Source of the DNA: Podarcis liolepis
Lineage: Eukaryota
Reading direction: 5' to 3' (one strand)
Length of the DNA stretch: 64,000 nt
Assembly: GCA_965112155.1 (NCBI GenBank)
Contig: OZ218110.1
Shown: positions 2,713 through 52,115 of the stretch, one piece after another
Layout: every line of letters begins with the position of its first letter
Numbering within the stretch: the stretch's first letter is position 1
Position numbers and translations under genes: made by a program
The notes under the pieces: generated by a model
Told to the model about the DNA's origin: nothing
Seen by the model: the letters and a program-made list of their open reading frames with translations, nothing else
Database searches by the model: none

Positions 2713-2757
<45 letters not shown>
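2713..2757. repeat. (GT)n microsatellite
   Basis: Uninterrupted GT run in V2R intron 2. Confidence 0.97.
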
Positions 2758-2761
<4 letters not shown>

Positions 2762-7080: not shown

Positions 7081-7302
7081 CTTCATCATTTCTTGAGGAG
7101 CATCTCTTTTAACAACAGCATTGGTGGCCACGTGTCTCTGAATGAAAAAGGTGAATTAGAAAGTGGATTTGATATTATAAACTGGATTACTTTCCCAAAT
7201 AGATCTTTCATGAAGGTGAAAGTAGGGAGGATGGATCCATGGGGAGCCAAACAGTTCACCATTAACGAGGAGATCATCACATGGCACAAAGTGTTTAACC
7301 AG
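7081..7302 (+). CDS. V2R-1 exon 4
   Basis: LHHFLRSISFNNS...FDIINWITFPN...WHKVFNQ; AG at 7079-7080, GT at 7303. Confidence 0.95.
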
Positions 7303-9002
7303 GTATGGTCTGACCTTTGGTTTCAGGTACAAAATATCAGTGGATATTCTAGTACGAATCCTCAATGTATTTATTTATTTGCCAGATTTATATCCAATCA
7401 TCTAGGTCTTTAAGGTGGTTTACAAATATATTTGAAAATACTAACTTATGGGAAATTTTCACTTTAAAACATATGGAAACACTCATTCACAGTTCTTTCA
7501 CCTGAGAGATTTCCAAATAAGTAACTTTAACAATTTAAAGTATTTCTCTGTGGAGAGTACAGAGCACCTGTTGTCAACTCAGCATAGGAAATGTTGTGAA
7601 CTATTGGTATGTAATAAAGTAATATTTTGCAAACTGTTATGTCCTTTATTCAAACACTGTGTTGAAGCCTAGTGGAGTTATGTAGGACATGGAATCAATG
7701 AAGTTTTGGTTTGTTCCTCTTAGAGAACATGCTTGCCATATGAGGTTATTGGCCAAACTGAGTATGATGTTAATGGTTAGAATGCAATTAATGCAAATAT
7801 TCTTAAAAATGTAAATAGAGAACATACATGTCCTGAAGAGCAATGGGGCAGGAGGTTCAGCACAGAGTGAGGGTCATTATCAGTCCAGAGCACCACTCCT
7901 AGTTTGTTCTGGCTGTTTTTGATTAATTTACAATGTTAAAAAGCCCATGGTACACATTTAAATGCATTTTCTCTTAGAATGGGGAAAAAATGAAAATGTA
8001 TTTCTTTAAGCTATTCATTTATAACACATATTTTAGTCTTTAGGGTTTTTTAAAGATGTGAACTGCATTGAAATATTTATTAAACTAGAAATAACTAGAA
8101 GGGGAATATGTAGAATAGTTCGTGTTTCATTTGTCCCTTGTCATATAAGTCACTAGCCTTCTATAAGGCCTCAATGGAGCAAGCATTAGGACAGTGAAAC
8201 TTTGTGCAATGTGCATTGTAAGAGAGCACATCTCTTGACCCAGAAATGATGAATTTATTTTGCATCGAACCTGTGTCCTCTCTTATGCCATTACTTTCAA
8301 TGTGATTGATCCATGGAGATAAGAATATACAACAGGTGTGCACCAGTCACAAGATTCATCTAGTATCTGTATTTTGCAGATACAGCCTCTTCACCATGGA
8401 AAAAAGTAATTGCTTCACTGAATCCCATAGGGGAAGGGGTGGTGGTCAAAAGAGGTCATTGATCCTCAAGAAAGAGTTGGGTAGAGAAAATGTCATGGCC
8501 CAGTAAAAACCCTGTTATTCCAAGAATCATTGATGTGGGTGGGCTTCTTCCTACCCCATGGAGTTTTGGGAATACAGCTACTTTTTGCTGGGATAGATCT
8601 CTCCATGAGGAAGAGCCATAGCTTATCAGTAGAACATCTGTTTTGTATGCAGGCAGAAGTCAAGACTGAGCTAGATGGATCAATGTATCTATCAGTAAAT
8701 GGCAGATTCCTATGTTCCCCCTGCAAAGAGATAATGATGGTGGTGAAAACAAATGCAAAATACAGTATATCCATGTGAAAAACAATGCAGCCCTTGCTTT
8801 AGAAATGTGGCAATTTTTATGCAACCTAGTACCAGAGTGACTCAGACCATTAAAGTGTTCATGATCCAGCTCAATACACCCTCAATTTGGGCATGAGAAA
8901 AACTCAGACCACTCCTATTTGCCTTGTAATCTAGGTAGCACACAACCAATTGATGCACATCCTCAGTATACTAGCCCTTTCCTTCATTGCATTTCTGAAT
9001 AG

Positions 9003-9129
9003 ACACCACCTTCTTCTGTGTGTAATAACGTGTGTCATCCAGGGTTTGTGAGAAAAAAGAAGGAGGGGGAGCCATTCTGTTGCTACGATTGTGACCCATG
9101 TGCAGAAGGGAAGATTTCTAATCCAAAAG
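9003..9129 (+). CDS. V2R-1 exon 5 (cysteine-rich domain), GC donor
   Basis: TPPSSVCNNVCHPGFVRKKKEGEPFCCYDCDPCAEGKISNPK; 127 nt; followed by GCAAGT. Confidence 0.92.
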
Positions 9130-9191
9130 GCAAGTGTCAACCATGTTATCACATGAACATGATTCCCCCCTCACCACCAGTGGCTTAATTA

Positions 9192-10511
9192 CCGTATTTT
9201 TCGCCCCATAAGACGCACCGGCCCATAAGACGCACCTAGATTTTAGGGGGGGAAATAAAGGAAAAAAAATTATTTCCCCCCCAGGTGCGCTGCGCTAATC
9301 CAGAAGCTTGGGGCAAGCTGAGGTCAGCGCGCCCCAAGCTTCTGCGTGCCGGCAAGCAGTCCGCTGCCGCCCCAAGCCTCCCGCACCCGGCAGGAGGTCC
9401 CGCTGGGTGCGCAAGGCTTGGGGCGGCAGCGGACTGCTTGCGCGCACCTAGAAGCTTGGGGCGTGCTGAGCTCAGCACGCCCCAAGCTTCTGCATGCCGG
9501 CAAGCAGTCCGCTGCCGCCCCAAGCCTCCCGCACCCGGCAGGAGGTCCCGCCGGGTGCGCGAGGCTTGGGGCGGCAGCGGACTGCTTGCGCGCACCTAGA
9601 AGCTTGGGGCCAGCTGAGCTCAGCCCGCCCCAAGCTTCTAGGTGCGCGCAAGCAGTCCGCTGCCGCCCCAAGCCTCGCGCACCCAGCGGGACCTCCTGCC
9701 GGGTGCGGGAGGATTGGGGCGGCAGCGGACTGCTTGCGCGCACCGAGAAGCTTGGGGCCAGCTGAGCTCAGCCCGCCCCAAGCTTCTAGGTGCGCGCAAG
9801 CAGTCCGCTGCCGCCCCAAGCCTCGCGCACCCAGCGGGACCTCCTGCCGGGTGCGGGAGGATTGGGGCGGCAGCGGACTGCTTGCGCGCACCGAGAAGCT
9901 TGGGGCCAGCTGAGCTCAGCCCGCCCCAAGCTTCTAGGTGCGCGCAAGCAGTCCGCTGCCGCCCCAAGCCTCGCGCACCCAGCGGGACCTCCTGCCGGGT
10001 GCGGGAGGCTTGGGGCGGCAGCGGACTGCTTGTGCGCACCGAGAAGCTTGGGGCCAGCTGAGCTCAGCCCGCCCCAAGCTTCTAGGTGCGCGCAAGCAGT
10101 CCGCTGCCGCCCCAAGCCTCGCGCACCCAGCGGGACCTCCTGCCGGGTGCGGGAGGCTTGGGGCGGCAGCGGACTGCTTGCGCGCACCGAGAAGCTTGGG
10201 GCCAGCTGAGCTCAGCTGGCCCCAAGCTTCTAGGTGCGCGCAAGCAGTCCGCTGCCGCCCCAAGCCTCCCGCACCCGGTGGGACCTCCTGCCGGGTGCGC
10301 GAGGCTTGCAGACACTCGCCCGAAGCAGGGGGAGCCCTCCAGAGGGCTCCCCGTGCTTCGGGCGACAGGCTGCCGCCCCAAGCCTCGCGCACCCGGTGGG
10401 ACCTCCTGCCGGGCGCGCGAGGCTTGCAGGCATTCGCCCCATAAGACGCACCCCGATTTCCCCTTCATTTTTGGAGGGGAAAAAGTGCGTCTTATGGGGC
10501 GAAAAATACGG
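9192..10511. mobile_element. Non-autonomous Tc1/mariner (Tc2-type) DNA transposon with expanded GC-rich internal array
   Basis: Perfect 27-bp TIRs CCGTATTTTTCGCCCCATAAGACGCAC; TA duplication at 9190-9191 and 10512-10513; subterminal CCCATAAGACGCAC repeats. Confidence 0.92.
9301..10430. repeat. 148-bp palindromic tandem repeat (~7 units) inside the transposon
   Basis: The 148-bp period shows in the sequence and in ORF offsets (9346, 9494, 9642, 9790, 9938, 10086, 10234). Each unit is made of inverted halves. Confidence 0.95.
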
Positions 10512-10879
10512 TAAGTTTGTGTGGATTTATTTTATTTTTTAATCATTTTTATTGAGTTTTTTTCTCTTACAACAATATCTGCAATCATTACATTACATGC
10601 AAGTTTCACTTTCCCCTTTTCCCTACTGACATCCCTCAACTTCCGTCCCTGGTTTATTACCTCTCATATTACAATCTGCTGTTTGTGTGGATTTAGATGA
10701 TAAAGCTTGCAGTGTTAAACTTTATCTTTAGATATGGGAATTTTGAAGGCATATGTACATGCAGAAGTCTCTTTCTGCATGATTGTGAACATTGCTTTTC
10801 CAGTATTCTGTATAGTTCAGACATCTACCCATGTGCTAGTTTCATTGACTGAGTTGTGATCATGCCTTTTCCTCTACAG

Positions 10880-11781
10880 ATATGGACAATTGTATAAAAT
10901 GCCCAGAAGATCAATATCCAAATGAAGACCAAGATGGATGTCTCCCCAAGATGCCACACTTTCTGTCCTATGATGAAAATTTGAGCATCACTTTAGCTTT
11001 CATGGCATTTTCATTTTCTGTGATCACTGCTTTGGTGCTTAAAATATTCATTAAATACAATGAAACTCCCCTTGTTAAAGCCAACAATCGTGGTCTCACG
11101 TACACTCTGCTCATCGCCCTTTTGCTTTGCTTCCTCTGCTCCATGCTGTTCTTTGGAAGGCCACAGAAAGTAACCTGCCTCCTTAGGCAAACAGCTTTTG
11201 GCATCATCTTCACTGTGGCTGTTTCTTCTGTGCTGGCAAAAACCATCACAGTGGTTTTAGCATTCATTGCCACAAAACCAGGATCCAGGATAAGGAACTG
11301 GGTGGGGAAAAGACTGGCAGCTTCTATTGTTTTCTTCTGTTCCCTCATTCAAGGAGCTCTTTGTACTGTGTGGCTCTGTACTGCTCCCCCATTCCCACAT
11401 TTGGACATGGACTCTTTGGCTAAAGAAATTGTGGTTGAATGTAATGAAGGGTCTGTCCCTATGTTTTATTCTGTTCTTGGGTACCTGGGGTTTCTGGCTC
11501 TTGTCAGCTTTGTTGTGGCTTTTCTTGCTAGGGAATTGCCTAGCACTTTTAATGAAGCCAAGTTCATCACTTTCAGCATGTTGGTGTTTTGCAGTGTGTG
11601 GGTGTCTTTTGTGCCAACTTACCTGAGCACAAAGGGAAAATACATGGTGGCTGTGGAGATCTTCTCCATTTTAGCCTCTAGTGCTGGATTATTGGGCTGT
11701 ATCTTTTTTCCTAAATGTTATATAATTGTCATGAAGCCTGAACTGAACAGAAAGAAGTACTTAGGAAGGAGAATGAAGTAG
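10880..11781 (+). CDS. V2R-1 exon 6 (7TM domain)
   Basis: [15 protein letters not shown]...TPLVKANN...[18 protein letters not shown]...stop TAG. Confidence 0.97.
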
Positions 11782-23636: not shown

Positions 23637-26052
23637 TAACCTGCATTCATCATGATAGCTCAATGGATATGTTGACTTAGTGAGTAGCAGCTGAGAAAAA
23701 GCCAAATCCCATATGAGGGATCAGTTAGGAAAGGGATTAAAAATGAACCCACCAATTTTGTAATGGTTCAAAAATATTTATAGTGCAACCACATTTGCAA
23801 TACTGTCCACAGCTCTGGTTGCCATACTTCAAAAAGTATCTTGTAGAGTTCAGAAAGGGGTGAGGGGAGGCAACCAAAATGAACATAGAGCTGGAACAAA
23901 TTCCCTTCAAGGAAAGGTTACACTGTTTGGCTTTTTGGTTGGGAAAAGGGGTAAAAAAGAAAATTCTTCTCCCTCCTCCATAATACTAGATCTTGAGGCC
24001 AACCAATGAATGGTGGGAGAATCGGGACAGCTAAAAAGCTTTCACACAGAAAATTGTTAGTAATCTTTGGAAGTCTGGATGGCTTTAAGGTGGTTAGACA
24101 AACTTGAAAAACCTGTACTGTATCCCTCCCTACTCTTTGCTATAAAAACATAAGGTTATTGGCATTTAGTCATATGTTACTCCAGTTTGAAGAGGATGAA
24201 CACTACAAAACTAGAACATTTCACACAAGATAATATTCTTCACAGATGATTGGAACAAAATGGCATTAAATTCATACCATGCACATAGATGCAATTAATG
24301 GATAACAAGAAAATAAATTATTAAATTTTTTGCTTGTACCTGATTTAAAGATGGAGAAAACGTTGATTCCCTCATTTGACAGCACTTATCTAGGTAGCCA
24401 CTTTTGGGGGGGGGGGGTTGAAGGAAACAAAAATAATTGTCTGAGCTTTAGGATATTAAGCAGTTAATTAAATAGCAGAATCTTAACTCTGGGCTATCAG
24501 GCGTCAGAAGATGTGATGTGGGAGCCAGTAGGAATGTTGGTATTCATTTGGAGGCTCCATGGAAGCAGAAATCTTTGAAGATTATAAAACCAAGGGAAAA
24601 GAGAAAGCAAAGAGGGAGAGAGAAATCTAAGTATTTCAGTCCTCATGTTCTCTTCTAGAGGGATAAACTTTCTCTATAATTGTTTTGTGTGTGTGTTGGG
24701 GATGTCTGCAGTGTTTAGTATTATCTGTTGAGCTTGGGGATATGCACACTTGGGGCATTGCTCCTTGCAACATAAGAAAACACAAGAATTCCAAAATGGA
24801 AAGTTACATTGTCTCATCAGTATAATTTGGTTTTGACTGTGAAACAGGCATTCTCCTTATCCACACACAGTTTATAACTAATTAAATTAAAATAGTAATA
24901 AAACTTTCCAAAGTTGCATAAGTATATTCACAAAATCTTCAGAGACTCATTCTGTGAAATAATATCTGACTTCTTATGTTGTGTGACAAATGCATGTTTG
25001 TTTTTTTTGGGGGGGGGGGAATTCAGCTCAGCACTACTAATTACCTTTGTAGTGCATATTGTCTTTTTGCTACTTTTTCGCTTTCCTTATTGGGGGGGAG
25101 CACATTTGCCTGCCCCAGCTAACTTCTTTAACAATTTAAATTAACTTCTGTTCCTTAAAACCACTGATACATTGCAAACTGAAGGGGGCACTGTGGGATT
25201 GCTAAGCAACTTAAGTTATTTGAGTTCAGAAATAGCTACTGTGGACAATGTTTTGTGAGCTGTATGTATTAAGTATGGCAATGTATATTTTGCAGTCAGT
25301 TGCTTTATTTTATTGTTTCACTCTTGTCTCTTATCTTGTGGTTCAATTCAAATGTCTGATGCACATCTGTGTCTCCTGTACAAGGGGAAGCAGGTGAGCT
25401 TTTTCAAAAAGTTGAGTACTACTCAAACACAGTACTCTTCATCAAGAGCAAAAGAATTGAATTGAGTGGCAAGTTCCAAGCCACAAGTTCCAAGCCACAT
25501 GAGCCACAAAGTTCCCAGGAGAACAATAAAGCACACGGACACAAAGTATTTTGGTTTATGGGTTCAAATAGGTCACAACTTTATTGGTTACGAATGTGAG
25601 CAGTTTGGATTAGGCCAGCAATGGAGAGAGAGAGAGGGTGCCAGCTGGTTGTGCCATGGTTAAATGTGCCCGTGGCCCACACAGAGTTCTGATTGGCTGG
25701 GGCTATCCAATAAGGGCAGAACTCCAGCAACAACAACCCAGGAAGCAAATGGACATCATAATAGCCAGTCTCTACCTGAAGAAAGATGGCTGCCTACATT
25801 GATATCTGTATCTATAACTCTTTGTTATGACATGTGGTCCCTGGAAGCACTTTATATGACTTTTTTACCCACATGACAGTCCCATTACTAGCTGCTTTGA
25901 ACATTTAAAAAGAAGTAAGGCAGACTTTGCATCAGCTTTTAAATACATAAATGCTTAGATACGCAAAACAAATTCATCTCCATATCTCTGTTGCAATCCA
26001 CACATGGGACCCAGAGGGACAAAATGTTTAAGCTCACTCCAAAACGTAGACC

Positions 26053-27333
26053 ACAGCGGACCTTGCCACCAAACTCTGCCAATTTGTCCTTACCCACAAC
26101 AACTTCAAATTCGGTGATGACCTGTTCCTTCAGATCAGCGGCACAGCAATGGGCACCCGCATGGCCCCACAGTATGCCAACATCTTCATGGCAGATTTAG
26201 AACAACGTTTCCTAAACTCCTACCCACTCAAACCTCTCTTGTACCTGCGATACATTGACGATATTTTTATCATCTGGACACATGGTCAACAGACCCTGGA
26301 CACCTTTCACCAGAAATTTAATGATTTTCACCCCACAATCAACCTAACAATGAATCAATCCATGCAAGAAATACATTTTTTGGACACTACTATAAAAATA
26401 CAGGATGGGCGCATAGACACCACCTTATACCGTAAACCAACTGACCGACAAATATATCTACATGCCTCTAGCTACCATCCCAAACATACCAAACAGTCCA
26501 TTGTATATAGCCAGGCACTACGTTACAGCCGCATCTGTTCCAATTCTACAGACAGAGACTCTCACCTAAGAGATCTACAGCAAACCTTCTCAGAACTAAA
26601 ATACCCAGCAGATGAAGTTAGACAACAGATCAACAGAGCCCGACTGATACCTAGAGAGAACTTGCTGCAAAACAGACCCAAAAAAGAAAATAACAGAACA
26701 CCTCTAGTCATCACATACAGCTCCCAAGTTAAAACAGTACAACACATCATCAGAGATCTACAACCTCTCCTGGACAATGACAGTTCTCTTTCTCAAGCTC
26801 TGGGAGGAAGACCTTTCATTGCCTACAGACAGCCACCCAATTTTAAACAACTCCTAACCCACAATAATACTACAACCAGGCTTAACACAGACACTGGCAC
26901 CAGAGCCTGCAATAAACCCAGATGCCAACTTTGCTGCCACATACACCCGGACAACACCATTACTGGCCCCAACAACATCACACATACCATCTCGGGACTA
27001 TTTAATTGCTCATCATCTAACACTGTGTATGCCATCAAATGCCAACAGTGTCCTTCAGCTCTCTATATTGGACAAACAGGCCAAATCTTATGCCAAAGAA
27101 TAAACAGACATAAATCTGACATCAAGAATCACAAAACAGAGAAACCAGTAGGAGAACACTTCAATCTCCCAGGACATTCTATACAAGATCTCAAAGTAGC
27201 TGTTTTACTACAAAGGAATTTCAGAAATAGACTGGAAAGAGAAGCTGCTGAATTGCAACTCATTACCAAACTTAAAACCATGGAGAGACCTGGTCTGAAC
27301 AAAGACATTGGATTCTTATCTCATTATACATGA
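26053..27333 (+). CDS. PLE RT C-terminal half plus GIY-YIG endonuclease (truncated, no native start)
   Basis: The frame stays open upstream of the 26149 ATG to the truncation point (TADLATKLCQFVLTHNNFKFG...GTAMG). Confidence 0.88.
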   Translation, partial: TADLATKLCQFVLTHNNFKFGDDLFLQISGTAMGTRMAPQYANIFMADLEQRFLNSYPLKPLLYLRYIDDIFIIWTHGQQTLDTFHQKFNDFHPTINLTMNQSMQEIHFLDTTIKIQDGRIDTTLYRKPTDRQIYLHASSYHPKHTKQSIVYSQALRYSRICSNSTDRDSHLRDLQQTFSELKYPADEVRQQINRARLIPRENLLQNRPKKENNRTPLVITYSSQVKTVQHIIRDLQPLLDNDSSLSQALGGRPFIAYRQPPNFKQLLTHNNTTTRLNTDTGTRACNKPRCQLCCHIHPDNTITGPNNITHTISGLFNCSSSNTVYAIKCQQCPSALYIGQTGQILCQRINRHKSDIKNHKTEKPVGEHFNLPGHSIQDLKVAVLLQRNFRNRLEREAAELQLITKLKTMERPGLNKDIGFLSHYT

Positions 27334-27513
27334 CTAAGCCATTTTTCACCTTCTCACCCCTTGCTTTTTCCTGTAAGACCTATTGCAGTCGTTAAGAGTC
27401 ATCAACAGGCTCATCTCAGCTATCTGCCAATCTCCCATTCCCACCACCCTTCTGAGTAATACCCCACCCCACCTTCTCACTATATAGGAGGATCTGGCAA
27501 CTTCTGTTTCAGT

Positions 27514-27551
27514 GTATCTGAAGAAGTGTGCATGCACACAAAAGCTCATAC
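27514..27551 (+). ncRNA. Minimal type I hammerhead ribozyme, core-mutated copy (GAAA>AAAA)
   Basis: GUAU-CUGAAGA-A-GUGUGCAUGCACAC-AAAA-GC-UC-AUAC. Confidence 0.78.
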
Positions 27552-27779
27552 CAAGAACTAACTTAGTTGGTCTTTAAGGTGCTACTGGAAGGAATTTTTT
27601 TATTTTGACTATGGCAGACCAACACGGCTACCTATCTGTAACTGGATCCAAAACGTAGAGTGAACCAAAATTCTCTGCCATTGCCAATTCAGGCAAAACG
27701 TGCATGTAATATTTATTTGATTATATTTCTGACAAAATCAGAAGAAGCAATAATGAGGGTGAAAATTATTGTTATGAAA

Positions 27780-28039
27780 GTTATTGTTTGGACACATGGG
27801 AGCAATTTGTCAAAGTACCAAAGTGCACATCCAATTAACCTCCTTTCTACATGAGCATCTTTAAAAAGCCAGTTTACAAAGGAGCTGCTACACAATATTC
27901 AGTCAAATCTGAAAAGCAGATGAAAGACTCTCAGATGACCCAAGGGATGCATGATCAGTCATAACCTAAAGCAGCTACCTCCCAAAAATGCCATTTACCC
28001 ACATTGAGCGCCAACTGCTCTTAAAGGGGATAGGTAAGT
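27780..28039 (+). promoter_or_regulatory. Putative OR promoter / non-coding exon 1 ending in a strong donor
   Basis: Conserved in three paralogs (~32690-32947, ~39835-40083). Homeodomain site CAATTA at 27832, O/E-like ACCCAAGGGA at 27938, AG|GTAAGT donors at 28034, 32942 and 40078; acceptors at 30078, 35023 and 41157. Confidence 0.55.
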
Positions 28040-30107
28040 TTTATTTTAATTTTAAAAAATGTAAATTTAATACTATCTACAGTTTTAAAAGTCTGACATT
28101 TCCCCCCTCTTTATTCACTGGCACACCACCTACATTTCTCTCTTACACAACAACATTCCCTTTGAAATCTCCCATTCACTGAAGTCAATGTCATTAAAGT
28201 GTAATAATACAAGCAGTATGCATTAACTGGGGGGCGGGGGCAGCAGTATGTCTGTGGGAAACATCAAGTCAAGACTTCCAAGATGTGGAAGTAACATGTA
28301 AGCATCTTTGTACACTTAACTGAGAAATCTGACCAAAAGAAAAATAATGAAATTGCAAGCAATTAGGGAAAAAGTGGTCTTACAACCAATTCATCCTCCC
28401 ACCTTTATACTTCTCCCATGAGTAGACACTAATGTGATAAATTAATTGTTTGCATGTTGCTGACTGCACCAGAATACAAATCCAGAGTAGGCTAGCAGGA
28501 GGACCAGCAGATCAGTTGGGGCTGATCCAAGGCATTCTTCTGGCTGAGGCAACATATAAGTCGGCACTCCCTGCCACACTCATCAGCATCTTACGCCACA
28601 CCAAAGGCTAGTTTAGGCACCACAAAGCAGGTCACATTACACAAACTTGGTTTATCCTCCAATAGTGTTTGCTCACTCTCCCAATTAGCAGCTATTTTTC
28701 TTATTTTCAAGCAAGTCACCTCCACACCAAGGGGCTAACATTGGATAAGACAGTTCCATAATTATTTCTTAAATATTAAGGCAGCTAAATACTAATGGGG
28801 TGCATGAGGTGTTAGGGGAGGGACAGTACCTCTGGTGGGGGATATGTCATGCTCCATCTGGGGTAGTTTGTTGACCTTTGGTCCCCAACTTGCACTCAGC
28901 TCTCACCTGTGCCTCCTAGGAGCTGTCAGCATGTGACAATGGCCACAAACATGGAACAGCTTTGCCTGGCCAGCTAAACCAGCTGAGGGTAGGCAATGGC
29001 TCTCAAACCCTTGGTGAATTAAGGACTTCCCCCGCATGCAAAGATTTAGCGGATCTGATTCTGGCAAATAAGACCAATGGTGGGTCCAGTGGTAGAGAAG
29101 GTGGTTACTGCAGGTGCTGTAGAGGGAAGTGGGGCAGATGGGGCTTGTCAAACTGGGAAGGTAGCCCATTTAGGAGAAGGAAAACTCTGATCCTAAACCT
29201 CTGCTGCCTTGCAGGATTTCTTCAGGAGATGAAAAGCTAAGAAGTAAACACTACACAAATCTGGAGAGCAGTCCCTCCGACAATTGGATGGTGGCTTGTA
29301 TGCTATTAATAATTGTGTGTAGAGTGATATAGTGAGCTCCTGTACTAGTCTTCAGATATGTTTTTGTGGGTCTATGATACAATGGTGCTGCGTTCATCTG
29401 AGAGCCCTCCATCTTCTAATGGGACCTGACAGAATATTGAGTAGTAGTTTTCTGTTTATGGGGGGTGGGACCTGCTAACTGTGAAAGGGGCCTGCTGTTT
29501 GGTGACCTTTCTGGGGCGGGCAAAGGAACTGGGGCAAATATGTTCACACAGTTTGTGGGAAGGATGGGAGGAAAGGCACAAGTATCTGCATCACCAGTGA
29601 AAATAGTTGATCCACCCTGCCTTCTCAGGATGCATTAAGTTTCATATTTCCTTCCACATCCAGCCAAACACCCAAAAGGAAGGCTATAAGTGAATACTGT
29701 GTGCAAATAATCTGGTAGTTTAATTGAGAACCCTGAATCATTGAGACCTATAGCTTGGTGGTGAACTCCTAGGACATAGATGTGCCTGCATGTTGGCTTC
29801 TCTTTTCTGAGGTCCCTCTGAATGCATAGATGTCAGGAGAAGAGATTATGGATATAGTCAGACCTTGCCCTGAACACATTTGCAACAGATATAGAGGCTC
29901 AATGAGTGGACAGGGATTCTCTCATGACAATACAGAGGGGTCAGACAGCCTGTCATCATATGTCTTCATTTCATATTTCAGCAAAGAAATATCAGCTTCA
30001 TTTGATTATTACACAGAAGGAGTCCACCTTAAATTAAACTGCTTACTCAATATTTCTTTCTATCTTATTCTGGTACAGGTAATATGTGAATATGCCCAGT
30101 GAAAAAA

Positions 30108-31046
30108 ATGCACAATCTTACCTCCATGTCTACATTTCTGCTGCTGGGATTCTCAGACATTCGAGAACTGCAGATCTTGCACTTCTTTGTGTTCCTAGCA
30201 TTGTACATTATAGCAATCATAGGTAATCTCCTCATTGTTGCTGCAATTGTCCTTGATCACCAGCTTCACACACCCATGTACTTCTTTCTACTGAATTTGG
30301 CTATGCTGGACATCGGAACAATTTCCGTCATGGTACCCAAATCAATAGTTCTTTCCCTTCTAAACAGCAGGTTTATTTCTTATTTTGGATGTGTTGCACA
30401 AGTTTTCTTTTTTATGTTATTCGGAACATCAGATGTTGCTCTCCTAACTATAATGGCACATGATCGCTATGTTGCTATCTGCAATCCATTACAATATGAG
30501 TCAATAATGCACAAAGCAGCCTGTATTCGTATGGTAGTGATTGTGTGGACTATTTGTGTTTTATATGCTGCGTTACATACTGGGAGCACCTTTGCAAATA
30601 CCTTCTGTTCTAATGCTGTTAATCAGTTCTTTTGTGAAATCCCACCACTACTGAAGCTCTCCTGCTCTAACTTCTACCTGGTTGAAGTTGGGCTTCTTGT
30701 GCTAAGCTCTGGTATAGCACTAGGTTGTTTTGTTTTCATAATCTTAACATATATGCAGATCTTTTCTACAGTGTTAAAAATCCCCTCCGTTCATGGAAAG
30801 AAAAAAGCCCTCTCCACTTGCCTTCCTCACCTCACTGTTGTCTCTGTGTTTCTTATAAGTGGGGTGTTTGCCTATGCAAGGCCTCCTAGTGATTCTTCTT
30901 CCGATCTGGATATAGGTGTGTCTGTGATGTACACCATAATTCCTCCCACATTGAATCCATTCATCTACAGCATGAGAAACAAAGAAATCAAGACTGCTTT
31001 GTGGAAACTCTTAAATTTTGGGAAATCTTCTAAAGTTTTCTCCTGA
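30108..31046 (+). CDS. Olfactory receptor, OR14-like, 312 aa
   Basis: LHTPMYFFL, MAHDRYVAICNPLQY, NQFFCEIP, KALSTCLPH, PPTLNPFIYSMRNKEIK. Confidence 0.96.
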   Translation: MHNLTSMSTFLLLGFSDIRELQILHFFVFLALYIIAIIGNLLIVAAIVLDHQLHTPMYFFLLNLAMLDIGTISVMVPKSIVLSLLNSRFISYFGCVAQVFFFMLFGTSDVALLTIMAHDRYVAICNPLQYESIMHKAACIRMVVIVWTICVLYAALHTGSTFANTFCSNAVNQFFCEIPPLLKLSCSNFYLVEVGLLVLSSGIALGCFVFIILTYMQIFSTVLKIPSVHGKKKALSTCLPHLTVVSVFLISGVFAYARPPSDSSSDLDIGVSVMYTIIPPTLNPFIYSMRNKEIKTALWKLLNFGKSSKVFS

Positions 31047-34000
31047 GTTGTTCTGTGAAAATGGGATTTTGTGGTCTTCGGTATGAGAATGGTTTCCTTT
31101 AAATAAAGCGCCACACACATTTCAGTAACCAGCAAACATTACTTCTATCACAAATATTACCCTCTGCCCACTCTAGCCTACATTGAATTTCTTTCATCCA
31201 TCATTTTTCATATGCATAGTTTGGCTACAGTCAACCTAATATCAGCTGAGTTATAATCTACGCAGAAATCAACATGACATTCTAATACTGTCTGAACTTT
31301 ATTGATTAGGTTCCTTTTCTAAACACTGGTGTAGGCCTCGTCCCTTGCTACTACCAATAACAATGGGTGAGAATTTCACCTCAGCTCTCATTCTAAACTG
31401 AATCTATCAAATTCACACTTTCAATATACGAACTTGACCACAAATTCAGTTCTCTGAATTTTCCAATGAAGTTTGCCCATAAGCCAATGTTTTAGAAAAA
31501 TCCATATTTTCAGGGAATTTATGTAAATAAATGGATATATTAGTGAACCTAACACAAAAAATGCTTCAAAAATGTGTGCATTAGTAAAAACTGCACGTAA
31601 ATATATTTATTAGAAGATATGCACACTAAAATGCTGAGGAAATGTCATGAGAATATTTTTTTAACAGCGAATTGCTCCAAAAATTGAAAATTGAATTTAT
31701 GGTTAGAAAAAGGTTCAACTGAGATAGGACCTTTCTCTGGGACCAAAGAGAAAATGTTTTTGGACAATGTCAAGGAGTTTCAAAAGACTGGAAATTATTG
31801 CTACTTTGCTTAGAGAAATTTGTTACTTTGCATTTTGTAACATTTTATTTTGTAACTAGTTTAAAACATTTTTGAAGTAAAACTTTTTGGAATTCATTCT
31901 TGTGGTGGAGCTTATTCTCTTCTATGGTGCACAAGATCCAGAGCAGGGATCCATTCTAATATCTCTAACAAGAGGTGCTGAGGGAAGGCACATTCCTTTC
32001 TATTTATGGAGCTTTCTAACCTGCCAGCAATGGCAGAGAGATGCCAGCCGGCTGTGCCACGGTTAAATGTGCCAGTGGCCACACTCACACAGAGTTCTGA
32101 TTGGCTGGGGCTGTCCAACAAGGGCAGAACCCCAGCAACAACAACACAGCTGCCATGACGCAGGGTGAAGGCAGCAACTCTCTGCCCCCTAAGCTGGCAT
32201 ATTGTTGTGACCCAGCTGCCCGGCTGCAATGCCGCCCACTGTGAAAGGTGAGCGGACTTGTGACACATCACTATGGGAAGTTAGTTTTTAAAATGTTCCC
32301 AGGAAGCAAGATGGCTGCCTACATTGATATCTGTATCTATAACTCTTTGTTATGACATGTGGTCCTTGGAAGCACTTTATATGACTTTTTTACCCACATG
32401 ACAGTCACATTACTAGCTGCTTTGACAATTTAAAAAGAAATAAGGCAGACTCTGCATCAGCTTTTAAATACATAAATATGCAAAACAGATTCATCTCCAT
32501 ATCTTTGTTGCAATCCGCACATGGGACCCAAAGGGACAAAATGTTTACGCTCACTCCAAAATGTAGAGTGAACCAAAATTCTCTGCCATTGCCAATTCAG
32601 GCAAAACGTGCATGTAATATTTATTTGATTACATTTCTGACAAAATCAGAAGAAGCAATAATGAGGGTGAAAATTATTGTTATGAAAGTTATTGTTTGGA
32701 CACTTGGGAGCAATTTGTCAAAGTACCAAAGTGCACATCCAATTAACCTCCTTTCTACATGAGCATCTTTAAAAAGCCAGTTTACAAAGGAGCTGCTACA
32801 CAATATTCAGTCAAATCTGAAAAGCAGATGAAAGACTCTCAGATGACCCAAGGGATGCATGACCAGTCATAACCTAAAGCAGCTACCCCCCAAAAATGCC
32901 ATTTACCCACATTGAGAGCCAACTGCTCTTAAAGGGGATAGGTAAGTTTTATTTTAATTTTAAAAAATGTAAATTTAATACTATCTACAGTGATAAAAGT
33001 CTGACATTTCCCCCCTCTTTATTCACTGGCACACCACCTACATTTCTCTCTTACACAACAACATTCCTTTTGAAATTTCCCATTCACTGAAGTCAATGTC
33101 ATTAAAGTGTAATAATACAAGCAGTATGCATTAACTGGGGGGGGGGGGAGCAGCAGTATGTCTGTGGGAAACATGAAGACAAGACTTCTAAGATGTGGAA
33201 GTAACATGTAAGCATCTTTGTACACTTAACTGAGAAATCTGACCAAAAGAAAAATAATGAAATTGCAAGCAATTAGGGAAAAAGGGGTCTTACAACCAAT
33301 TCAGCCTCCTACCATTATACTTCTCCCATGAGTAGACACTGATGTGATAAATTAATTGTTTGCATAAGCTGACTTAAACAGAAAACAAATCCAGAGTAGG
33401 CTAACAGGAAGACCAGAAGGTCACTTGGGGCTGATCCAAGGCATTTTTCTGGCTGCGGCAACATATAAGTCGGCACTCCCTGCGACACTCAATTCCCTAC
33501 TTAAAGACCACGAACGAGGCAGCATCTTACGCCACACCAAAGGCTAGTTTAGGCACCACAACACGATCACATGACACACACTTGGTTTATCCTCCGATAG
33601 TGTTTGCTCACTCTCCCAATTAGCAGCTATTTTTCTTATTTTCAAGCAAGTCACCTCCTCACCAAGGGGCTAACATTGGGCAAGACAGTTCCATAATTAT
33701 TTCTTAAATACTAAGGCAGCTAAATACTGATGGGGTGCATGAGGTGTTAGGGGAGGGGCAGTACCTCTGGTGGGGGATATGTCATGCTCCTTCTGGGGTA
33801 GCTTGTTGACCTTTGGTCCCCACCCTGCACTCAGCTCTCACCTGTGGCTCCTAGGAGCTGTCAGCATGTGACAGTGGCCACAAACTGGGAACAGCTTTGC
33901 TTGGCTAGCTAAACCAGCTGTGGGTAGCCAATGGGTCTCAAACTCTTGGTGAATTAAGGACTTATCCTGCATGCAAAGATTTAGTGGATCTTAATCTGGC

Positions 34001-35052
34001 GGATTGAGCAAACAAGACCAATGGTGGGTCCAGTGGTAGAGAAGGTGGTTTCTGCAGGTGCTGTAGAGGGAAGTGGGGCAGATGGGGCTTGTCAAACTGG
34101 GAAGGTAGCCCATTTAGGAGAAGGAAAACTCTGATCCTAAACCTCTGCTGCCTTGCAGGATTTCTTCAGGAGATGAAAAAGCTAAGAAGTAAACACTACC
34201 CAAATCTGGAGAGCAGTCCCTCCAACAATTGGATGGTGGCTTGTACACTATTAATAATTGTGTGTAGAGTGATATAGTGAGCCCCTGTACTAGTCTTCAG
34301 ATATGTTTATGTGGGTCTATGATACAATGGTGCTGCATTCATCTGAGAGTCCTCCATCTTCTAATGGGACCTGACAGAATATTGAGTAGCAGTTCTTTGT
34401 TTATGGGGGGTGGGACCTGCTAACTGTGAAAGGGGCCTGCTGTTTAGTGACCTTCCTGGGGCAGGCAGAGGAACTGGGGCAAATGTGTCAACACAGTTTG
34501 TGAGAAGGATGGGAGGAAAGGCACCTGTATCTGCATCACCAGTGAAAATAGTTGATCCACCCTGCCTTCTCAGGATGCATTAAGTTTCATATTTCCTTCC
34601 ACATCCAGCCAAACACCCAAAAGGAAGGCTATAAGTGAATACTGTGTGCAAATAATCTGGTAGTTTAATTGAGAACCCTGAATCATTGAGACCTATAGCT
34701 TGGTGGTGAACTCCTAGGACATAGATGTGCCTGCATGTTGGCTTCTCTTTTCTGAGGTCCCTCTGAATGCATAGATGTCAGGAGAAGAGATTATGGATAT
34801 AGTCAGACCTTGCCCTGAACACATTTGCAACAGATATAGAGGCTCAATGAGTGGACAGGGATTCTCTCATGACAATACAGAGGGGTCAGACAGCCTGTCA
34901 TCATATGTCTTCATTTCATATTTCAGCAAAGAAATATCAGCTTCATTTGATTATTACACAGAAGGAGTCCACCTTAAATTAAACTGCTTACTCAATATTT
35001 CTTCCTATTTTATTCTGGTACAGGTAATATGTGAATATGCCCAGTGAAAAAA

Positions 35053-35991
35053 ATGCACAATCTTACCTCCATGTCAACATTTCTGCTGCTGGGATTCTCA
35101 GACATTCGAGAACTGCAGATCTTGCACTTCTTTGTTTTCCTAGCATTGTACATTATAGCAATCATAGGGAATCTCCTCGTTGTGGTTGCAATTGTCCTTG
35201 ATCACCAGCTTCACACACCCATGTACTTCTTTCTACTGAATTTGGCTATGCTGGACATTGGAATAATTTCCGTCATGGTACCCAAATCAATAGTTCTTTC
35301 CCTCCTAAACAGCAGGTTTATTTCTTATTTTGGATGTGTTGCTCAAGTTTTCTTTTTTATGTTATTTGGAACATCAGATTTTGCTCTCCTAACTATAATG
35401 GCACATGATCGCTATGTTGCTATCTGCAACCCATTACAATATGAGTCAATAATGCACAAAGCAGCCTGTATTCGTATGGTAGTGATTGTGTGGACTATTT
35501 GTGTTTTATATGCTGTGTTACATACTGGGAGCACCTTTGCAAATACCTTCTGTTCTAATGCTGTTAATCAGTTCTTCTGTGAAATCCCATCATTACTGAA
35601 GCTCTCCTGCTCTAACTTCTACCTGGTTGAAGTTGGGCTTCTTGTGCTAAGCTCTGGTATAGCACTAGGTTGTTTTGTTTTCATAATCTTAACATATATG
35701 CAGATCTTTTCTACAGTGTTAAAAATCCCCTCCGTTCATGGAAAGAAAAAAGCCCTCTCCACTTGCCTTCCCCACCTCACTGTTGTCTCTGTGTTTCTTT
35801 TAAGTGGGTTGTTTGCCTATGCAAGGCCTCCTAGTGATTCTTCTTCCGATCTGGATATAGGTGTGTCTGTGATGTACACCATAATTCCTCCCACATTGAA
35901 TCCATTCATCTACAGCATGAGAAACAAAGAAATCAAGACTGCTTTGTGGAAACTCTTAAATTTTGGGAAATCTTCTAAAGTTTTCTCCTGA
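35053..35991 (+). CDS. Olfactory receptor, OR14-like, 312 aa (recent duplicate of 30108)
   Basis: Same motifs; 8 amino-acid differences from 30108-31046. Confidence 0.96.
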   Translation: MHNLTSMSTFLLLGFSDIRELQILHFFVFLALYIIAIIGNLLVVVAIVLDHQLHTPMYFFLLNLAMLDIGIISVMVPKSIVLSLLNSRFISYFGCVAQVFFFMLFGTSDFALLTIMAHDRYVAICNPLQYESIMHKAACIRMVVIVWTICVLYAVLHTGSTFANTFCSNAVNQFFCEIPSLLKLSCSNFYLVEVGLLVLSSGIALGCFVFIILTYMQIFSTVLKIPSVHGKKKALSTCLPHLTVVSVFLLSGLFAYARPPSDSSSDLDIGVSVMYTIIPPTLNPFIYSMRNKEIKTALWKLLNFGKSSKVFS

Positions 35992-37254
35992 GTTGTTCTG
36001 TGAAAATGGGATTTTGTGGTCTTCGGTATGAGAATGGTTTCCTTTAAATAAAGCGCCACACACATTTCAGTAACCAGCAAACATTACTTCTATCACAAAT
36101 ATTACCCTCTGCCCACTCTAGCCTACATTGAATTTCTTTCATCCACCATTTTTCATATTCATAGTTTGGCTACATTCAACCTAATATCAGCTGAGTTATA
36201 ATCTATGCAGAAATCAACATGGCATTCTAATACTGTCTGAACTTTATTGATTAGGTTCCTTTTCTAAACACTGGTGTAGGTCTCATCCCTTGCCACTACC
36301 AATAACAATGGGTGAGAATTTCACCTCAGCTCTCATTTTAAACTGAATCTATCAAATTCACACTTTCAATATACGAACTTAACCACAAATTCAGTTCTCT
36401 GAATTTTCCAATGAAGTTTGCCCATAAGCCAATGTTTTAGAAAAATCCATATATTCAGGGAATTGAATTTATGGTTAGAAAAATGTGCAACTGAGATAGG
36501 ATCTTTCTCTGGGACCAAAGAGAAAATGTTTTTGGACAATGTCAAGGAGTTTTAAAAGATTGGAACTTATTGCTACTTTGCTTAGAGAAATTTGTTACTT
36601 TGCATTTTGTAACATTTTATTTTGTAACTAGTTTAAAACATTTTTGCAGTAAAACTTTTTGGAATTCATTCTTGTGGTGGAGCTTATTCACTTCTATGGT
36701 GCACAAGATCCAGAGCAGGAAATTCCACTCTAATATCTCTAACAAGAGGTGCTGAGGAAACAGGAAGGCACATTCCTTTCTGTTAGTGCTTTGACTTGGG
36801 AAGCCTCACACAGATCCCATGTCAACTTGGGGAAATCCAGAATCCACCCTTCTGCCTCCCTCAAGGCACCCTGCTTTGGCTCAGGATGAATTTGGTATTT
36901 GTCTGAATTCACTGCACACATCCTTCATATTAAGTAATCCATGCTCTTTTACAAGACAAATATCACATAAATTGCAGGTCTCCAGCAGGATGGAGGACCC
37001 AGAGTGCTTCTACATAATACAGTGGGGTTTTCTTATTTCTTGGACAATAGCACAATTGGAGGTTACCAGAGTCTGTGTGACGGTAGCCAAGCTATCCCTG
37101 TCCATTAAAGACAATAGTTGTGCACCAGCTGAAGCTTGGCATAAGCACTTCAAGCCACTGACTCCTGATCCCAAGTGATTACGAACCTGCTCCTTTAAGT
37201 AACATTACTCCACCTGGTTGAACCAGTTAGAATATTCAAGGGCAGAAGACTGAA

Positions 37255-37580
37255 ATGTTATAGCCATCTTCAAATATCCAAATATCCAAAGAGCTGTCAC
37301 ATGGAAGATGGCACAAGCTTGTTTTTCACTGCTCCAAAGGGTAGGATTCAAATTACAAGAAAGGAGATTCTGATTGAACATTAGGAAGAACTTTCTGATG
37401 GTAAGAGCTGTTGAACAATGGAACCGACTACCTCAGAAGGTGGTGGACTATTATTCATTGGAGGCTTTTCAATAGAGGTTGGATGGCTCCCTGTCAGGGA
37501 TTATTTACTTGTTATTCCTGCATTGAAACGAGTTGGGCTATATGGCCATTGAGGTCCCTTCCAACTGTTCAATTCTAGGT
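37255..37580 (+). mobile_element. CR1 LINE 3' fragment
   Basis: ggaagaactttctgatggtaagagctgtt...ggtcccttccaact..attcta, CR1 3' region. Confidence 0.75.
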
Positions 37581-37941
37581 ATAATTCAATGCAACAATTC
37601 AAGCAAGAGGTAACCAGAACATGGATTGCTGTGAAAGACTATCTCTATACATAAATGGCAAGAGCTGAGTAATCAGTCAAAGCTGGCAGAATACATTCCA
37701 TGTCACCAAGTGACAATGGTGGATCAAAGATCTCCTTCAAAGTCGTGCAGTTGGCCCTTTTGATGGGGGGTATTGGACTGTAAAAAAATGGTCGAACCTC
37801 ATGGTTTGAAGCTTCATAATGATGATGAAGATGGTTTTACTGTACTTTTATCAGTGAGGTCAGGAAAAGCTGTGTGTGGTGGACATTCCTTTGGTCAGCC
37901 CCCTGAAGACTCAGTAGCCAATCACAGTAAGGTGAAGTGCT

Positions 37942-38314
37942 TGTTAGGATATTTCCGTTCCGCCTTAAAAAGGGGACAGGCTGTTGTGAGTCACAGCCTA
38001 TGTATTTCCTGTTCACAGGATGTTTCTGTTTTGTATATGCTTTCGTTTTCTCTCTGTGCCTGGACATCAAAGCAGGCAGTCATGTTTTCTCTTTGTTCTG
38101 ACCAACGCTGAATAAAGTTGTAAATAATGTTCTCCTGAGTGCATCTGTACGAACTCTGCTGATAGAGCGTGCATCAGTCCTTGGAATGTGGAAAGCTATT
38201 TCCGAGGCTTTTGTCGCTAATTGATTGATACTGCGTTTCTACGGGAGGTTGATGGATCGTCCAGAGACAGTGTGGGGCCATGATGGCTTTTGTCTCCCTG
38301 GCAGTATCCCAACA
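37942..38314 (+). mobile_element. Solo LTR (373 bp)
   Basis: TGTTAGGATA...TATCCCAACA termini, 5-bp TSD GTGCT (37937-37941, 38315-38319), AATAAA at 38111. Confidence 0.88.
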
Positions 38315-39062
38315 GTGCTAGCCAATCAGGGGGGAGTGGAAAAGTAAAAGGTAAAACCTGGCAGTTAAAGTGTTAGATAGGGCTTGGATGGGAGAATAGC
38401 TGAGCAGCTAGAGGTTTGCTAGGCAGGGCAAACCAGATTATTTTATAAAACAATTATAACATATTATATCATAAAGGGGGGCTAGATGTGTTTTACTAGC
38501 ATGGTGGGACAAAGAGCCATTCTAGGATGAATCAGATGATTTAGGAACACTGTTAAAGTCATAAGTAAAAGTCTTAAACACTTCTTTAAAAAAAAAGAAT
38601 TTGACCAAAATCAAGCTTGTACTTTACCAAAGTAACCATCAAGCTGTAACGCTCATTGGGTGTGTATAAATAAAATACCAGTTTTGTTTTAAACATGTCT
38701 AATTTAATTTATTCCCACTTTAAGGGATAAGTGGTCACAGATCATGAGTGAATGCCTGGAACCCCATGGGCTCCTGCCACCGCTCAGCAAAGAGAGAGGG
38801 AGGCACCCAACTTTTGTAACAGTATGTTTTATCTGTATGGTGGACAATTTACCAGGCAATCCAATAAACTTTTTAAAAAAACATGGAAAGAAAGAAGGCA
38901 GTCCTCAGACATCTTCCAAGTACCATTGGAGAACCCATGTATGGATTGATTCATAGATATGCAGACAAATCCTCTTTTCATGTTCCAATGTGCACATAGG
39001 TCTGCCAGAATAAAAAAAATTCCTTCCAGTAGCACCTTAAAGACCAACTAAGTTAGTTCTTG

Positions 39063-39100
39063 GTATGAGCTTTCGTGTGCATGCACACTTCTTCAGATAC
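39063..39100 (-). ncRNA. Minimal type I hammerhead ribozyme (intact core)
   Basis: GUAU-CUGAAGA-A-GUGUGCAUGCACAC-GAAA-GC-UC-AUAC: stem I GUAU/AUAC, palindromic stem II, AGCU in place of stem III. Confidence 0.85.
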
Positions 39101-39558
39101 ACTGAAACATTAGTTGCCAGATCCTTCTATATAGTGAGAAGGTGGGGAGGGGTGTTACTCAGAAGGGTGGTGGGAATGGGAGATAGGCAGATAGCTGAGA
39201 GAGCCTGTTGATGACTCTTAACGACTGTAATAGGTCTTACAGGAAAAGGCAAGGGGTGAGAAGGTGAGAAATGGTTTAGTCATGTATAGTGAGATAAGAA
39301 TCCAATGTCTTTGTTCAGCCCAGCTCTCTCCATGGTTTTAAGTTTGGTAATGAGTTGTAATTCAGCAGCTTCTATTTCCAGTCTATTTCTGAAATTCCTT
39401 TGTAGTAAAACAGCTACTTTGAGATCTTGTATAGAATGTCCTGGGAGATTGAAGTGTTCTCCTACTGGTTTCTCTGTTTTGTGATTCTTGATGTCAGATT
39501 TATGTTCGTTTATTAAAACCATTAACGGTTTATTAAAACCGCTATCTGCCTATCTCCC

Positions 39559-39596
39559 ATATCTGAAGAAGTGTGCATGCACACGAAAGCTCATAC
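39559..39596 (+). ncRNA. Minimal type I hammerhead ribozyme (intact core, stem I shortened by junction)
   Basis: AUAU-CUGAAGA-A-GUGUGCAUGCACAC-GAAA-GC-UC-AUAC. Confidence 0.82.
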
Positions 39597-40205
39597 CAAG
39601 AACTTACTTAGTTGGTCTTTAAGGTGCTACTGGAAGGAATTTTTTTTATTTTGACTATGGCAGACCAACACGGCTACCTATCTACAATAGGTCGGCCAGG
39701 GTCAAGATGGAAAACCTCTCTGTATACGCAGTGCGATCTGGAATCCTCTATAAGACAGTGAGCATATATTAGTTGCTTACATTTGTGACAGAAACAGAGG
39801 AAACAATAATTGGGGAGTTCTGGTTCTGATCAACTGTTTTGGACTCATGGGAGCAATTTGCCACAATGCCAAAGCACATATCCAATTAAGCTCCTTCTAA
39901 CACACACACCTTTTAAAAACCAGTTTATAAATACATCTGTTATACAATATTCAGGCATGTGCCAGAAGAAGAAGAAATCATCTCAGATGTCTCAATGAAT
40001 GTCTGACCAGTCATGGCCTATAGTAGTGAAATGAAAAACTTCACTTACCCAGGCTGAAACTGTTTTAAAAGGAATAGGTAAGTGGTTGGGGTGGTTTTTA
40101 GCTGTGAACTTAACAATACCTGTGGCAAGAAAACTGTAACTCCTTATTTCTTCGCATCATTCTTCATCACCACACCTACATCTTTCTGCATGTTACTCTT
40201 ACACT

Positions 40206-41186: not shown

Positions 41187-42128
41187 ATGCACAATCTTAC
41201 CTCCATGCCTGCATTTCTGCTGCTGGGATTCTCAGATATTCGAGAACTACAGATCTTGCACTTCTTTGTGTTCCTAGCCTTGTACTTGATGGCAATAATA
41301 GGGAATCTTCTAATTGTCATTGTCATTGTCCTTGATCACCACCTTCATACCCCTATGTATTTCTTTCTAATGAATTTGGCCATCATGGACCTTGGAACAG
41401 TTTCAGTTATGGTGCCCAAATCAATGGCTATTTCCCTTTACAACAACAGGTTAATTTCTTATTTTGGATGTGTTGCTCAGGTTTTCTTTTTACATTTATT
41501 TGGAATATCAGATTTTGCTCTCCTAACTATAATGGCACATGACCGTTACGTTGCTATTTGCAGACCACTGCAATATGAGACAATTATGCACAAAGGAGCC
41601 TGTATACGGATGGTAGCCATTGGGTGGATCACAGGCTTTCTTGCTGCCATGTTACATACTGGGAGCACCTTTGGCAATACCTTCTGTGGTAATTCTGTCA
41701 ATCAGTTCTTCTGTGAAATCTCAAAATTACTGAAGATCTCTTGCTCCGACTTTTACTTAGTTGAAGTTCGGGTTCTTGTGATAGCCTTTATTATATCAGT
41801 AGGATGCTTCATTTTCATCATCATAACATACATGCAGATCTTTTCTACAGTGCTCAGAATACCTTCTTTAGATGGTCAGAAAAAAGCCCTCTCCACTTGC
41901 ATTCCCCACCTCACTGTTGTCTCTTTGCTTATGTTCACTGGTGCCTTTGCCTACGCAAGGCCACCCACCGATTCTTCTTCTGATCTAGATATAGTTTTTG
42001 CTGTGATATATACCATAATTCCTCCCACATTAAATCCATTTATTTACAGTATGAGAAACAAAGAAATTAAGACTGCTTTGTGGAAACTGTTCTATAAAAA
42101 TAGTGTTGTATACTGTTCTATATGTTAA
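41187..42128 (+). CDS. Olfactory receptor, OR14-like, 313 aa (in-frame upstream ATG at 41163 could add 8 aa)
   Basis: LHTPMYFFL, MAHDRYVAICRPLQY, KALSTCIPH, PPTLNPFIYS. Confidence 0.95.
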   Translation: MHNLTSMPAFLLLGFSDIRELQILHFFVFLALYLMAIIGNLLIVIVIVLDHHLHTPMYFFLMNLAIMDLGTVSVMVPKSMAISLYNNRLISYFGCVAQVFFLHLFGISDFALLTIMAHDRYVAICRPLQYETIMHKGACIRMVAIGWITGFLAAMLHTGSTFGNTFCGNSVNQFFCEISKLLKISCSDFYLVEVRVLVIAFIISVGCFIFIIITYMQIFSTVLRIPSLDGQKKALSTCIPHLTVVSLLMFTGAFAYARPPTDSSSDLDIVFAVIYTIIPPTLNPFIYSMRNKEIKTALWKLFYKNSVVYCSIC

Positions 42129-51616: not shown

Positions 51617-51733
51617 TTTTATGGCAATATAATACATTCAATTTAATATTTATCTGTAGCAGACTACATTCAAAATAGGCTGTTTCCTTAGAATTCTGTC
51701 TTATTAACAAACACATGTATACTCTGTTACTTA

Positions 51734-51992
51734 CCATATTTTTTGCTCTATAAGACTCACTTTTCCCCTCCTTAAAATTAAGGGAAAATGTGTGTGCATC
51801 TTATGGAGCGAATGCAGGCTGCGCAGCTATCACAGAAGCCAGAACAGCAAGAGGGATTGCTGCTTTCACTGTGCAGCGATCTCTCTTGCTGTTCTGGCTT
51901 CTGAGATTCAGAACATATTTTTTCTTGTTTTCCTCCTCCAAAAACTAGGTGCGTCTTGTGGTCTGGTGCGGCTTATAGAGCGAAAAATACGG
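51734..51992. mobile_element. Tc2-type MITE with internal ~70-bp hairpin
   Basis: Ends homologous to the 9192-10511 element, TA TSD, hairpin at 51833-51903. Confidence 0.88.
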
Positions 51993-52062
51993 TAGTTCTG
52001 AAAAACCAGGAGCACCTATAACTGAGGATAGCAGTATGTTATAGTTTCCAATTTCAATACCT

Positions 52063-52065
<3 letters not shown>

Positions 52066-52111
<46 letters not shown>
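52066..52111. repeat. (AT)n microsatellite
   Basis: Pure AT run. Confidence 0.97.

Positions 52112-52115
<4 letters not shown>

Follow-up and report, generated by a model that had tools for sequence, protein, structure and literature searches.

The Neptune clade of Penelope-like elements (PLEs), reportedly due to Arkhipova in 2006, is the described group closest to two insertions, here called A and C, that lie at almost the same position upstream of paralogous olfactory receptor (OR) genes in a 64,000-nucleotide stretch of the lizard Podarcis liolepis genome (the window; G000:C14:25358001-25422000). The window is part of a lizard-type cluster of OR genes and of genes that we take to be V2R-like from the look of their open reading frames (ORFs). 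Endonuclease-bearing (EN+) PLEs of the Neptune clade are described as having a reverse transcriptase (RT) with a C-terminal GIY-YIG endonuclease, a CX2-5CxxC linker, target-site duplications (TSDs), a 3' end formed by a pseudo-long terminal repeat (pLTR) with a tail, a hammerhead-like motif and an inverted 5' arm (PMC8557442), and the family of A and C is alike in these features. A microsatellite bias is hypothesised for the Neptune-clade elements in that account, whereas the lizard copies have TSDs of 9-16 bp and prefer a short dyad, AC-(12-13 bp)-GT. The Poseidon element of Anolis carolinensis (PAc), as described, is similarly a lizard PLE: its tail ends vary, both strands are cut, a dimer is predicted and the hammerhead is dispensable for insertion. 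It belongs, however, to the Penelope/Poseidon clade without the linker, which the A/C family has, and prefers an ATT motif in vitro, whereas the first base past the TSD is G in 30 of 40 Podarcis copies (PMC11167929).

Other elements at the same position have described counterparts as well. Two short interspersed elements (SINEs) resemble Squam3B (PMC7983390) in their tRNA-like head, body of ~240 nt and (CTT)n-type tail, with no clear TSD in either, and we call them Squam3B-like from these head, body and tail features alone. The PLEs, the SINEs and a repeat like a miniature inverted-repeat transposable element (MITE) all belong to known kinds and are ordinary in themselves. A concentration of insertions near transcription starts is described for promoter-proximal transposon integration (PMC7337890) and repeat-free cores for mouse OR promoters (PMC3247239), and both are alike to what is seen here; these biases, as described, concern one element, genome-wide, whereas the lizard zone draws several element types into one homologous 60-bp stretch of one subfamily. 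No published report of the A/C locus or of the dyad consensus was found in a literature search that ran without supplements and had most subscription papers outside its coverage. We propose, at about even confidence, that A and C mark a zone prone to insertion by any element family, confined to this OR subfamily and lying at the upstream edge of a predicted promoter.

Two separate insertions and an empty duplicate

The features of the locus are as follows (window positions).

26038..26050, plus strand: left TSD of insertion A (13 bp, exact)
26050..27333, plus strand: open 427-aa frame with the C-terminal part of the RT, a CX4CxxC linker and a GIY-YIG endonuclease
26051..27646, plus strand: insertion A, a 5'-truncated Neptune-type PLE of simple architecture with a 3' tail
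27514..27551, plus strand: minimal hammerhead-like motif of A (core position 27540 is A, where 72 of 82 copies have G)
27647..27659, plus strand: right TSD of A (target site CAC-(13 bp)-GTG, in keeping with the dyad preference of the PLE family)
30108..31046, plus strand: intact OR ORF A
32508..32567, plus strand: empty homolog, in duplicate B, of the 60-bp insertion zone (C site at 32521-32533, A site at 32555-32567)
35053..35991, plus strand: intact OR ORF B (2.1% different from A in coding sequence, 3.7% upstream)
38996..39008, plus strand: left TSD of insertion C (13 bp; a single copy in the empty allele of sequencing run X1)
39009..39514, minus strand: inverted 5' arm of C (96.2% identity to A; intact hammerhead-like motif on the minus strand)
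39515..39559, no strand: filler at the junction of C, made of a short repeated stretch and a displaced element piece of ~20 nt
39560..39686, plus strand: 3' arm of C, in forward orientation and with the tail (differs from the inverted arm at 2 of 92 bases; motif with truncated helix I)
39687..39699, plus strand: right TSD of C (13 bp, 1 mismatch to the left copy)
41187..42128, plus strand: intact OR ORF C

Pfam places the window ORs in 7tm_4/olfactory receptor only, and the OR14 label of the original prediction is provisional. The A target site is present as a single copy in B and, because B is empty, insertion A on the simplest reading postdates the A/B duplication. Insertion C spans 39009-39686 as a whole, with its inverted arm also delimited as 39013-39514, and its junction filler is as expected from template switching or end-joining repair. 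The right flank of C aligns to B from 32521 with a score of 382 (shuffles 90±11, maximum 130) and, with the A site at 32555, the TSD starts are thus 34 bp apart. Its left flank aligns weakly to B (44.5; shuffle maximum 50) and clearly to the paralog at C14:25450400 (99.5; shuffle maximum 47). The distance from the end of the TSD to a conserved GTAAGT, the GT of which is a predicted splice donor, is 374 nt for A and 378 nt for C. The original prediction from this sequence, namely two separate Penelope insertions with alignable flanks, targets ~35 bp apart and ~375-380 bp before the donor, and an empty duplicate B, is borne out by these measurements and by the different 13-bp TSDs; its further statement that the orientations differ holds for the inverted 5' arm of C and fails for the tail-bearing 3' arm, which is on the same strand as A. 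A single insertion copied by duplication or conversion is ruled out, as the TSDs match their own local sequence, the A and C copies differ by 3.6% and B is empty. Insertion at duplication breakpoints is likewise ruled out, since homology runs on at both sides of the zone.

Insertion C varies among samples. Its site was checked in contigs of four sequencing runs (X1, X3, X4 and X6), of which X1 holds the exact empty allele on one unbranched 1243-bp contig that spans the site without differences and has a single TSD copy, while both junctions are present in X3 and X4 and the right junction in X6. C is therefore not fixed (lacking in 1/4), and the samples among which it varies include two with the same organism label.

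The 427-aa frame is a single ORF with an RT and, at its C terminus, a GIY-YIG domain, as in EN+ PLEs, and Pfam matches it to RVT_1 (E 5e-6, aa 26-103) and GIY-YIG (E 3.5e-4, aa 325-373), both below the gathering cut-off; a PDB sequence search with the frame gave 0 hits. The translation has a C-x4-C-xx-C linker between RT and endonuclease. Such a CX2-5CxxC linker is described as marking Neptune and Nematis and as missing in Penelope/Poseidon (PMC8557442), so that the latter clade is ruled out and the family appears to be Neptune-type, a placement by the linker motif alone, which Nematis shares. Among 52 young copies, an inverted 5' arm is the commonest architecture (36/52), and tail ends are variable; a pLTR 3' end, an optional tail and an inverted 5'-truncated arm have been described for PLEs (PMC3846280).

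Forty of the 52 young copies, taken from across the genome and from OR clusters, have an exact TSD of 9-16 bp (12-13 bp in 26), C being outside these 40 because of its TSD mismatch. The first base past the TSD is G in the 30 copies mentioned above and GT follows in 22, while AC precedes the TSD in 15. The target preference of the family is thus a dyad of 2+2 bases, which the A site matches in full and the C site by half. The dyad is consistent with a nick 5' of G(T) on each strand, that is, symmetric two-strand cutting, and two-strand cutting and a predicted dimer have been described for Anolis Poseidon (PMC11167929). It may therefore be read as genomic evidence consistent with a PLE endonuclease that cuts both strands as a dimer. 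B has 20 dyad-type sites in 1.5 kb, and with sites this common the clustering of insertions is not explained by the preference. A long shared target motif is ruled out by the presence of only the 2+2-base dyad among target sites, and a site-specific (targeted) retroelement by this and by the dispersal of copies over many contigs.

Predicted promoter cores and insertions beside them

Each of the three OR genes is preceded by a predicted promoter core, in which we take the two recurrent words to be O/E-like and homeodomain-like motifs.

27720..28040, plus strand: core of OR A (O/E-like 27793-27801, homeodomain-like CCAATTAA 27831-27838, predicted donor GT 28034)
32630..32948, plus strand: core of OR B (O/E-like 32701-32709, predicted donor GT 32942)
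39775..40084, plus strand: core of OR C (O/E-like 39844-39852, CCAATTAA 39882-39889, predicted donor GT 40078)

The upstream regions of B and C, used as queries, gave seven alignable proximal blocks, and searching with a profile built from the central 150 bp yielded 40 cores that precede ORs and share the strand of the gene. Hits were excluded if they were on the opposite strand, farther than 7 kb from an OR or lacking an anchor word; after one overlapping row was also taken out, 39 cores remained. In the second profile round 16 cores had an E below 1e-10, 14 of them training rows; the best reversed-sequence control had an E of 2.6 in round 1 and 0.1 in round 2. The O/E-like word occurs in the cores and CCAATTAA additionally in the proximal ones. 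From -90 to +349 there are no interspersed repeats at any of the 39 cores (P 0.0006 for the downstream side). Repeat depletion with repeat-free cores has been described at mouse OR promoters (PMC3247239), and selection likely clears insertions from the promoter core itself.

Further copies of the upstream sequence were noted. Three OR genes have tandem homologous O/E-type core pairs ~1.1-1.5 kb apart (C14:25437099/25438154, 25443367/25444823 and 25449318/25450675), which suggests duplicated or alternative promoters. At window 59-592 lies an OR copy that is inverted and internally deleted and keeps part of the A/B/C-type upstream block, and a further, orphan piece of that block lies at G000:C14:25321165-25321342, 37 kb before the window.

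Four of the seven proximal paralogs are hit within the same 60 bp, by PLE A, PLE C and the two SINEs, as independent events; those at B, 25438154 and 25450675 are empty. The insertions outside the window, including a third young PLE at a distal core, are listed here.

C14:25430314-25430671, minus strand: SINE in the paralog at C14:25430835, at the end of the position of C's TSD
C14:25444258-25444636, plus strand: SINE in the paralog at C14:25444823, 13 bp before the start of C's TSD (89% identical to the other SINE)
C14:25448917-25449158: third young PLE, 160 bp from a distal core (homology E 0.003, round 1); its duplicate is empty

ARAGORN found no tRNA in the two SINE-bearing stretches. Nested in the SINE at C14:25430314-25430671 is a repeat fragment of ~120 bp that ends in an (AAT)n-type sequence, which makes one more insertion at this spot, outside the counts given here. 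Among nine further strong cores, two have a repeat at a similar distance, these being the third young PLE and the MITE-like repeat, the latter 142 bp from another distal core. Three of the five exact-match young PLEs of the surrounding 664-kb cluster are 151-165 bp from a core, and an older PLE is at 224 bp. When insertions were placed uniformly, under each of 12 settings 0 of 5000 placements put three PLEs at the same distance from a core to within 15 bp.

The held-out statistics leave out A and C and count one duplicated insertion once, against a background of 0.55 repeat intervals per kb and control fractions of 0.021 (135-175 bp) and 0.095 (90-280 bp). The third PLE alone gives P 0.008-0.02. 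The 135-175 bp band is occupied at 3/14 strong cores (P 0.003) and the 90-280 bp band at 10/36 (P 0.0015); four events in 14 x 60 bp at 0.55/kb have P 0.001, and two of the five remaining proximal paralogs are hit (P 0.01). The insertion hotspot that had been suggested from A and C thus gains some support from a held-out excess in this OR subfamily, and it is not PLE-specific, since SINEs and the MITE-like repeat take part, nor does it recur in other OR clusters, as set out below.

Readings of the cluster

The four insertions fall in one 60-bp stretch, 140-190 bp upstream of the conserved, repeat-free predicted core, which, if the zone is real, would be due to a raised germline insertion rate that is open to any element. 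The cause might be that DNA at the upstream edge of the promoter, roughly a nucleosome length away from the O/E-like site, is accessible or prone to breaks; the dyad preference would then pick the exact base within the zone and the ribozyme would be a passenger.

Several results weigh against this reading. The distance bands were set after the data had been seen, and with the wider core set the 135-175 bp band is occupied at 3/37 (P 0.04, A and C removed). The plain 0-300 bp band (10/36) gives P 0.04, and weak cores alone in that band (6/22) give P 0.10. The MITE-like repeat abuts an assembly gap, and promoter, transcription start site and germline accessibility are all predicted. Replication was sought in 1 Mb of other OR clusters, with 160 OR hits and 138 upstream regions, where the profile found no homologous cores (best E 0.11). 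Noisy motif-plus-conservation anchors were instead found for 57 of the 138 regions. Repeats are depleted downstream of these anchors (6/57 within 470 bp, P 0.008), which suggests that some of them are real, and there is no upstream excess in these other clusters, with 6/54 at 90-280 bp (control 0.109; 5.9 expected) and 0/54 at 135-175 bp. Outside the cluster, an O/E-like motif lies 120-175 bp from PLE sites on 0 of 70 flank sides and in four other bands on 1-3 of 70, and a general link between PLE sites and the O/E motif is rejected for these flank sides. Without replication elsewhere, any zone is local to this OR subfamily, or the cluster is a fluctuation.

Chance plus ascertainment is the alternative that survives best, and we regard it as a real possibility that falls short of an even one. 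Insertions would then arrive at the background rate, purifying selection would clear the core, and coincidences would be visible only where paralogs align, with a large scan picking out the best cluster. Abundance fits this. The exact 26-mer of the PLE 3' end has 8,666 copies in 1.574 Gb, or 5.5 per Mb, a lower bound. There are 5 exact 3' ends in the 664-kb cluster and 6 in 1 Mb of other OR clusters (10 and 14 PLE loci of all ages, respectively), so that the PLE is not enriched in these OR clusters (11 in 1.66 Mb against 9 expected, P 0.31). The lack of replication in other OR clusters, the post hoc bands with P 0.04-0.10 in the broad one, and the repeat drop-off at OR promoters already described in mouse (PMC3247239) also speak for chance. 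Against it, the rough expectation for two PLEs to lie within 34 bp of each other upstream of OR paralogs, with gene numbers and the alignable length assumed, is only 0.004-0.08 per genome; leaving aside the discovery pair, the band holds four more events (P about 0.001-0.01), and purifying selection, while emptying the core, does not alone raise the neighbouring density.

Two observations on PLE distribution stand apart from these counts. The first 8 Mb of C1 (G000:C1:1-8.0 Mb) hold 100 exact PLE 3' ends, 12.5 per Mb and >2x the genome mean, so that PLE density varies regionally. Two PLEs with different flanks (G000:C14:26845945-26845975 and 26871083-26871257) are each found 104 bp past the point where an OR-like tblastn hit stops; this may be another coincidence or the result of partial hits.

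A stronger form of the insertion-prone zone appears doubtful to us: a stretch roughly one nucleosome upstream of the O/E site whose sequence would make it a germline landing zone for unrelated endonucleases, at some ten times the background rate. If true, mutation there would repeatedly supply cis-regulatory alleles that bear on receptor choice.

That any insertion in the zone is kept by selection because it alters the frequency or strength of receptor choice, for instance by moving an upstream O/E-like site away from the core, seems improbable. Further O/E-like words do lie in A and B just upstream of the A site (26000-26020) and are shifted by 1.6 kb by insertion A, the OR match is full-length or nearly so in all four proximal hosts, and C is present in runs of three organism labels. 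C is not fixed, however, as the exact empty allele in X1 attests, and the inserts are unlike in type, size and strand.

The hammerhead-like motif bears on the last alternative. The pLTR has hammerhead core words and a stem with a palindromic loop, a putative ribozyme, in which the conserved G presumably acts as the hammerhead core G; it is kept in 72 of 82 motif copies, and A is among the 10 without it. C has a forward motif with a truncated helix I and an intact antisense motif inside a 94-bp inverted repeat. Rfam gave 0 hits at gathering for the PLE motif and one irrelevant hit at E 1.5, and the monomer folds no better than shuffles. Being part of the 3' end used to collect copies, the motif does not mark out A and C. 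All such motifs of A and C are upstream of the predicted promoter, and none was seen in the inspected sequence of the SINEs in the same zone. Little or no cleavage is described for single minimal PLE hammerheads (PMC4209133), and the ribozyme is described as dispensable for insertion in Anolis Poseidon (PMC11167929). The selective retention of ribozyme-bearing elements that the original prediction offered is thus not supported, given the mutated core of A, the position of the motifs, the unfixed state of C and the SINEs without a motif.

It is very improbable that the PLE targets OR promoters specifically or that its copies are retained for their hammerhead ribozyme, for the three young PLEs and one older copy near cores would favour targeting but SINEs land in the same zone, OR clusters show no PLE enrichment and the preference extends to only 2+2 bases with many such sites in B, and retention for the ribozyme is itself largely refuted by the motif and cleavage evidence above.

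Surroundings and biological meaning

Two multi-exon genes like those of class C G protein-coupled receptors, V2R-like by the look of their ORFs, lie at window 2310-11781 and 57300-61358, interleaved with ORs on opposite strands. A GC-rich tandem array with units of ~148 bp is at 9322-10464, and related palindromic pieces are near 51731-52112 and 63120-63579.

The convergence of several element families and the segregating C allele make the question of an insertion-prone zone testable. If the cluster is due to chance, A and C are ordinary dead copies of a very common element. The filled and empty C alleles, together with the A/B duplicate pair, offer a direct test of the effect of an upstream insertion on receptor choice. 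A real zone would mean that unrelated elements can be drawn independently into homologous promoter flanks, which would bear on the use of retroposon presence/absence markers in gene families and on how OR repertoires gain regulatory variation.

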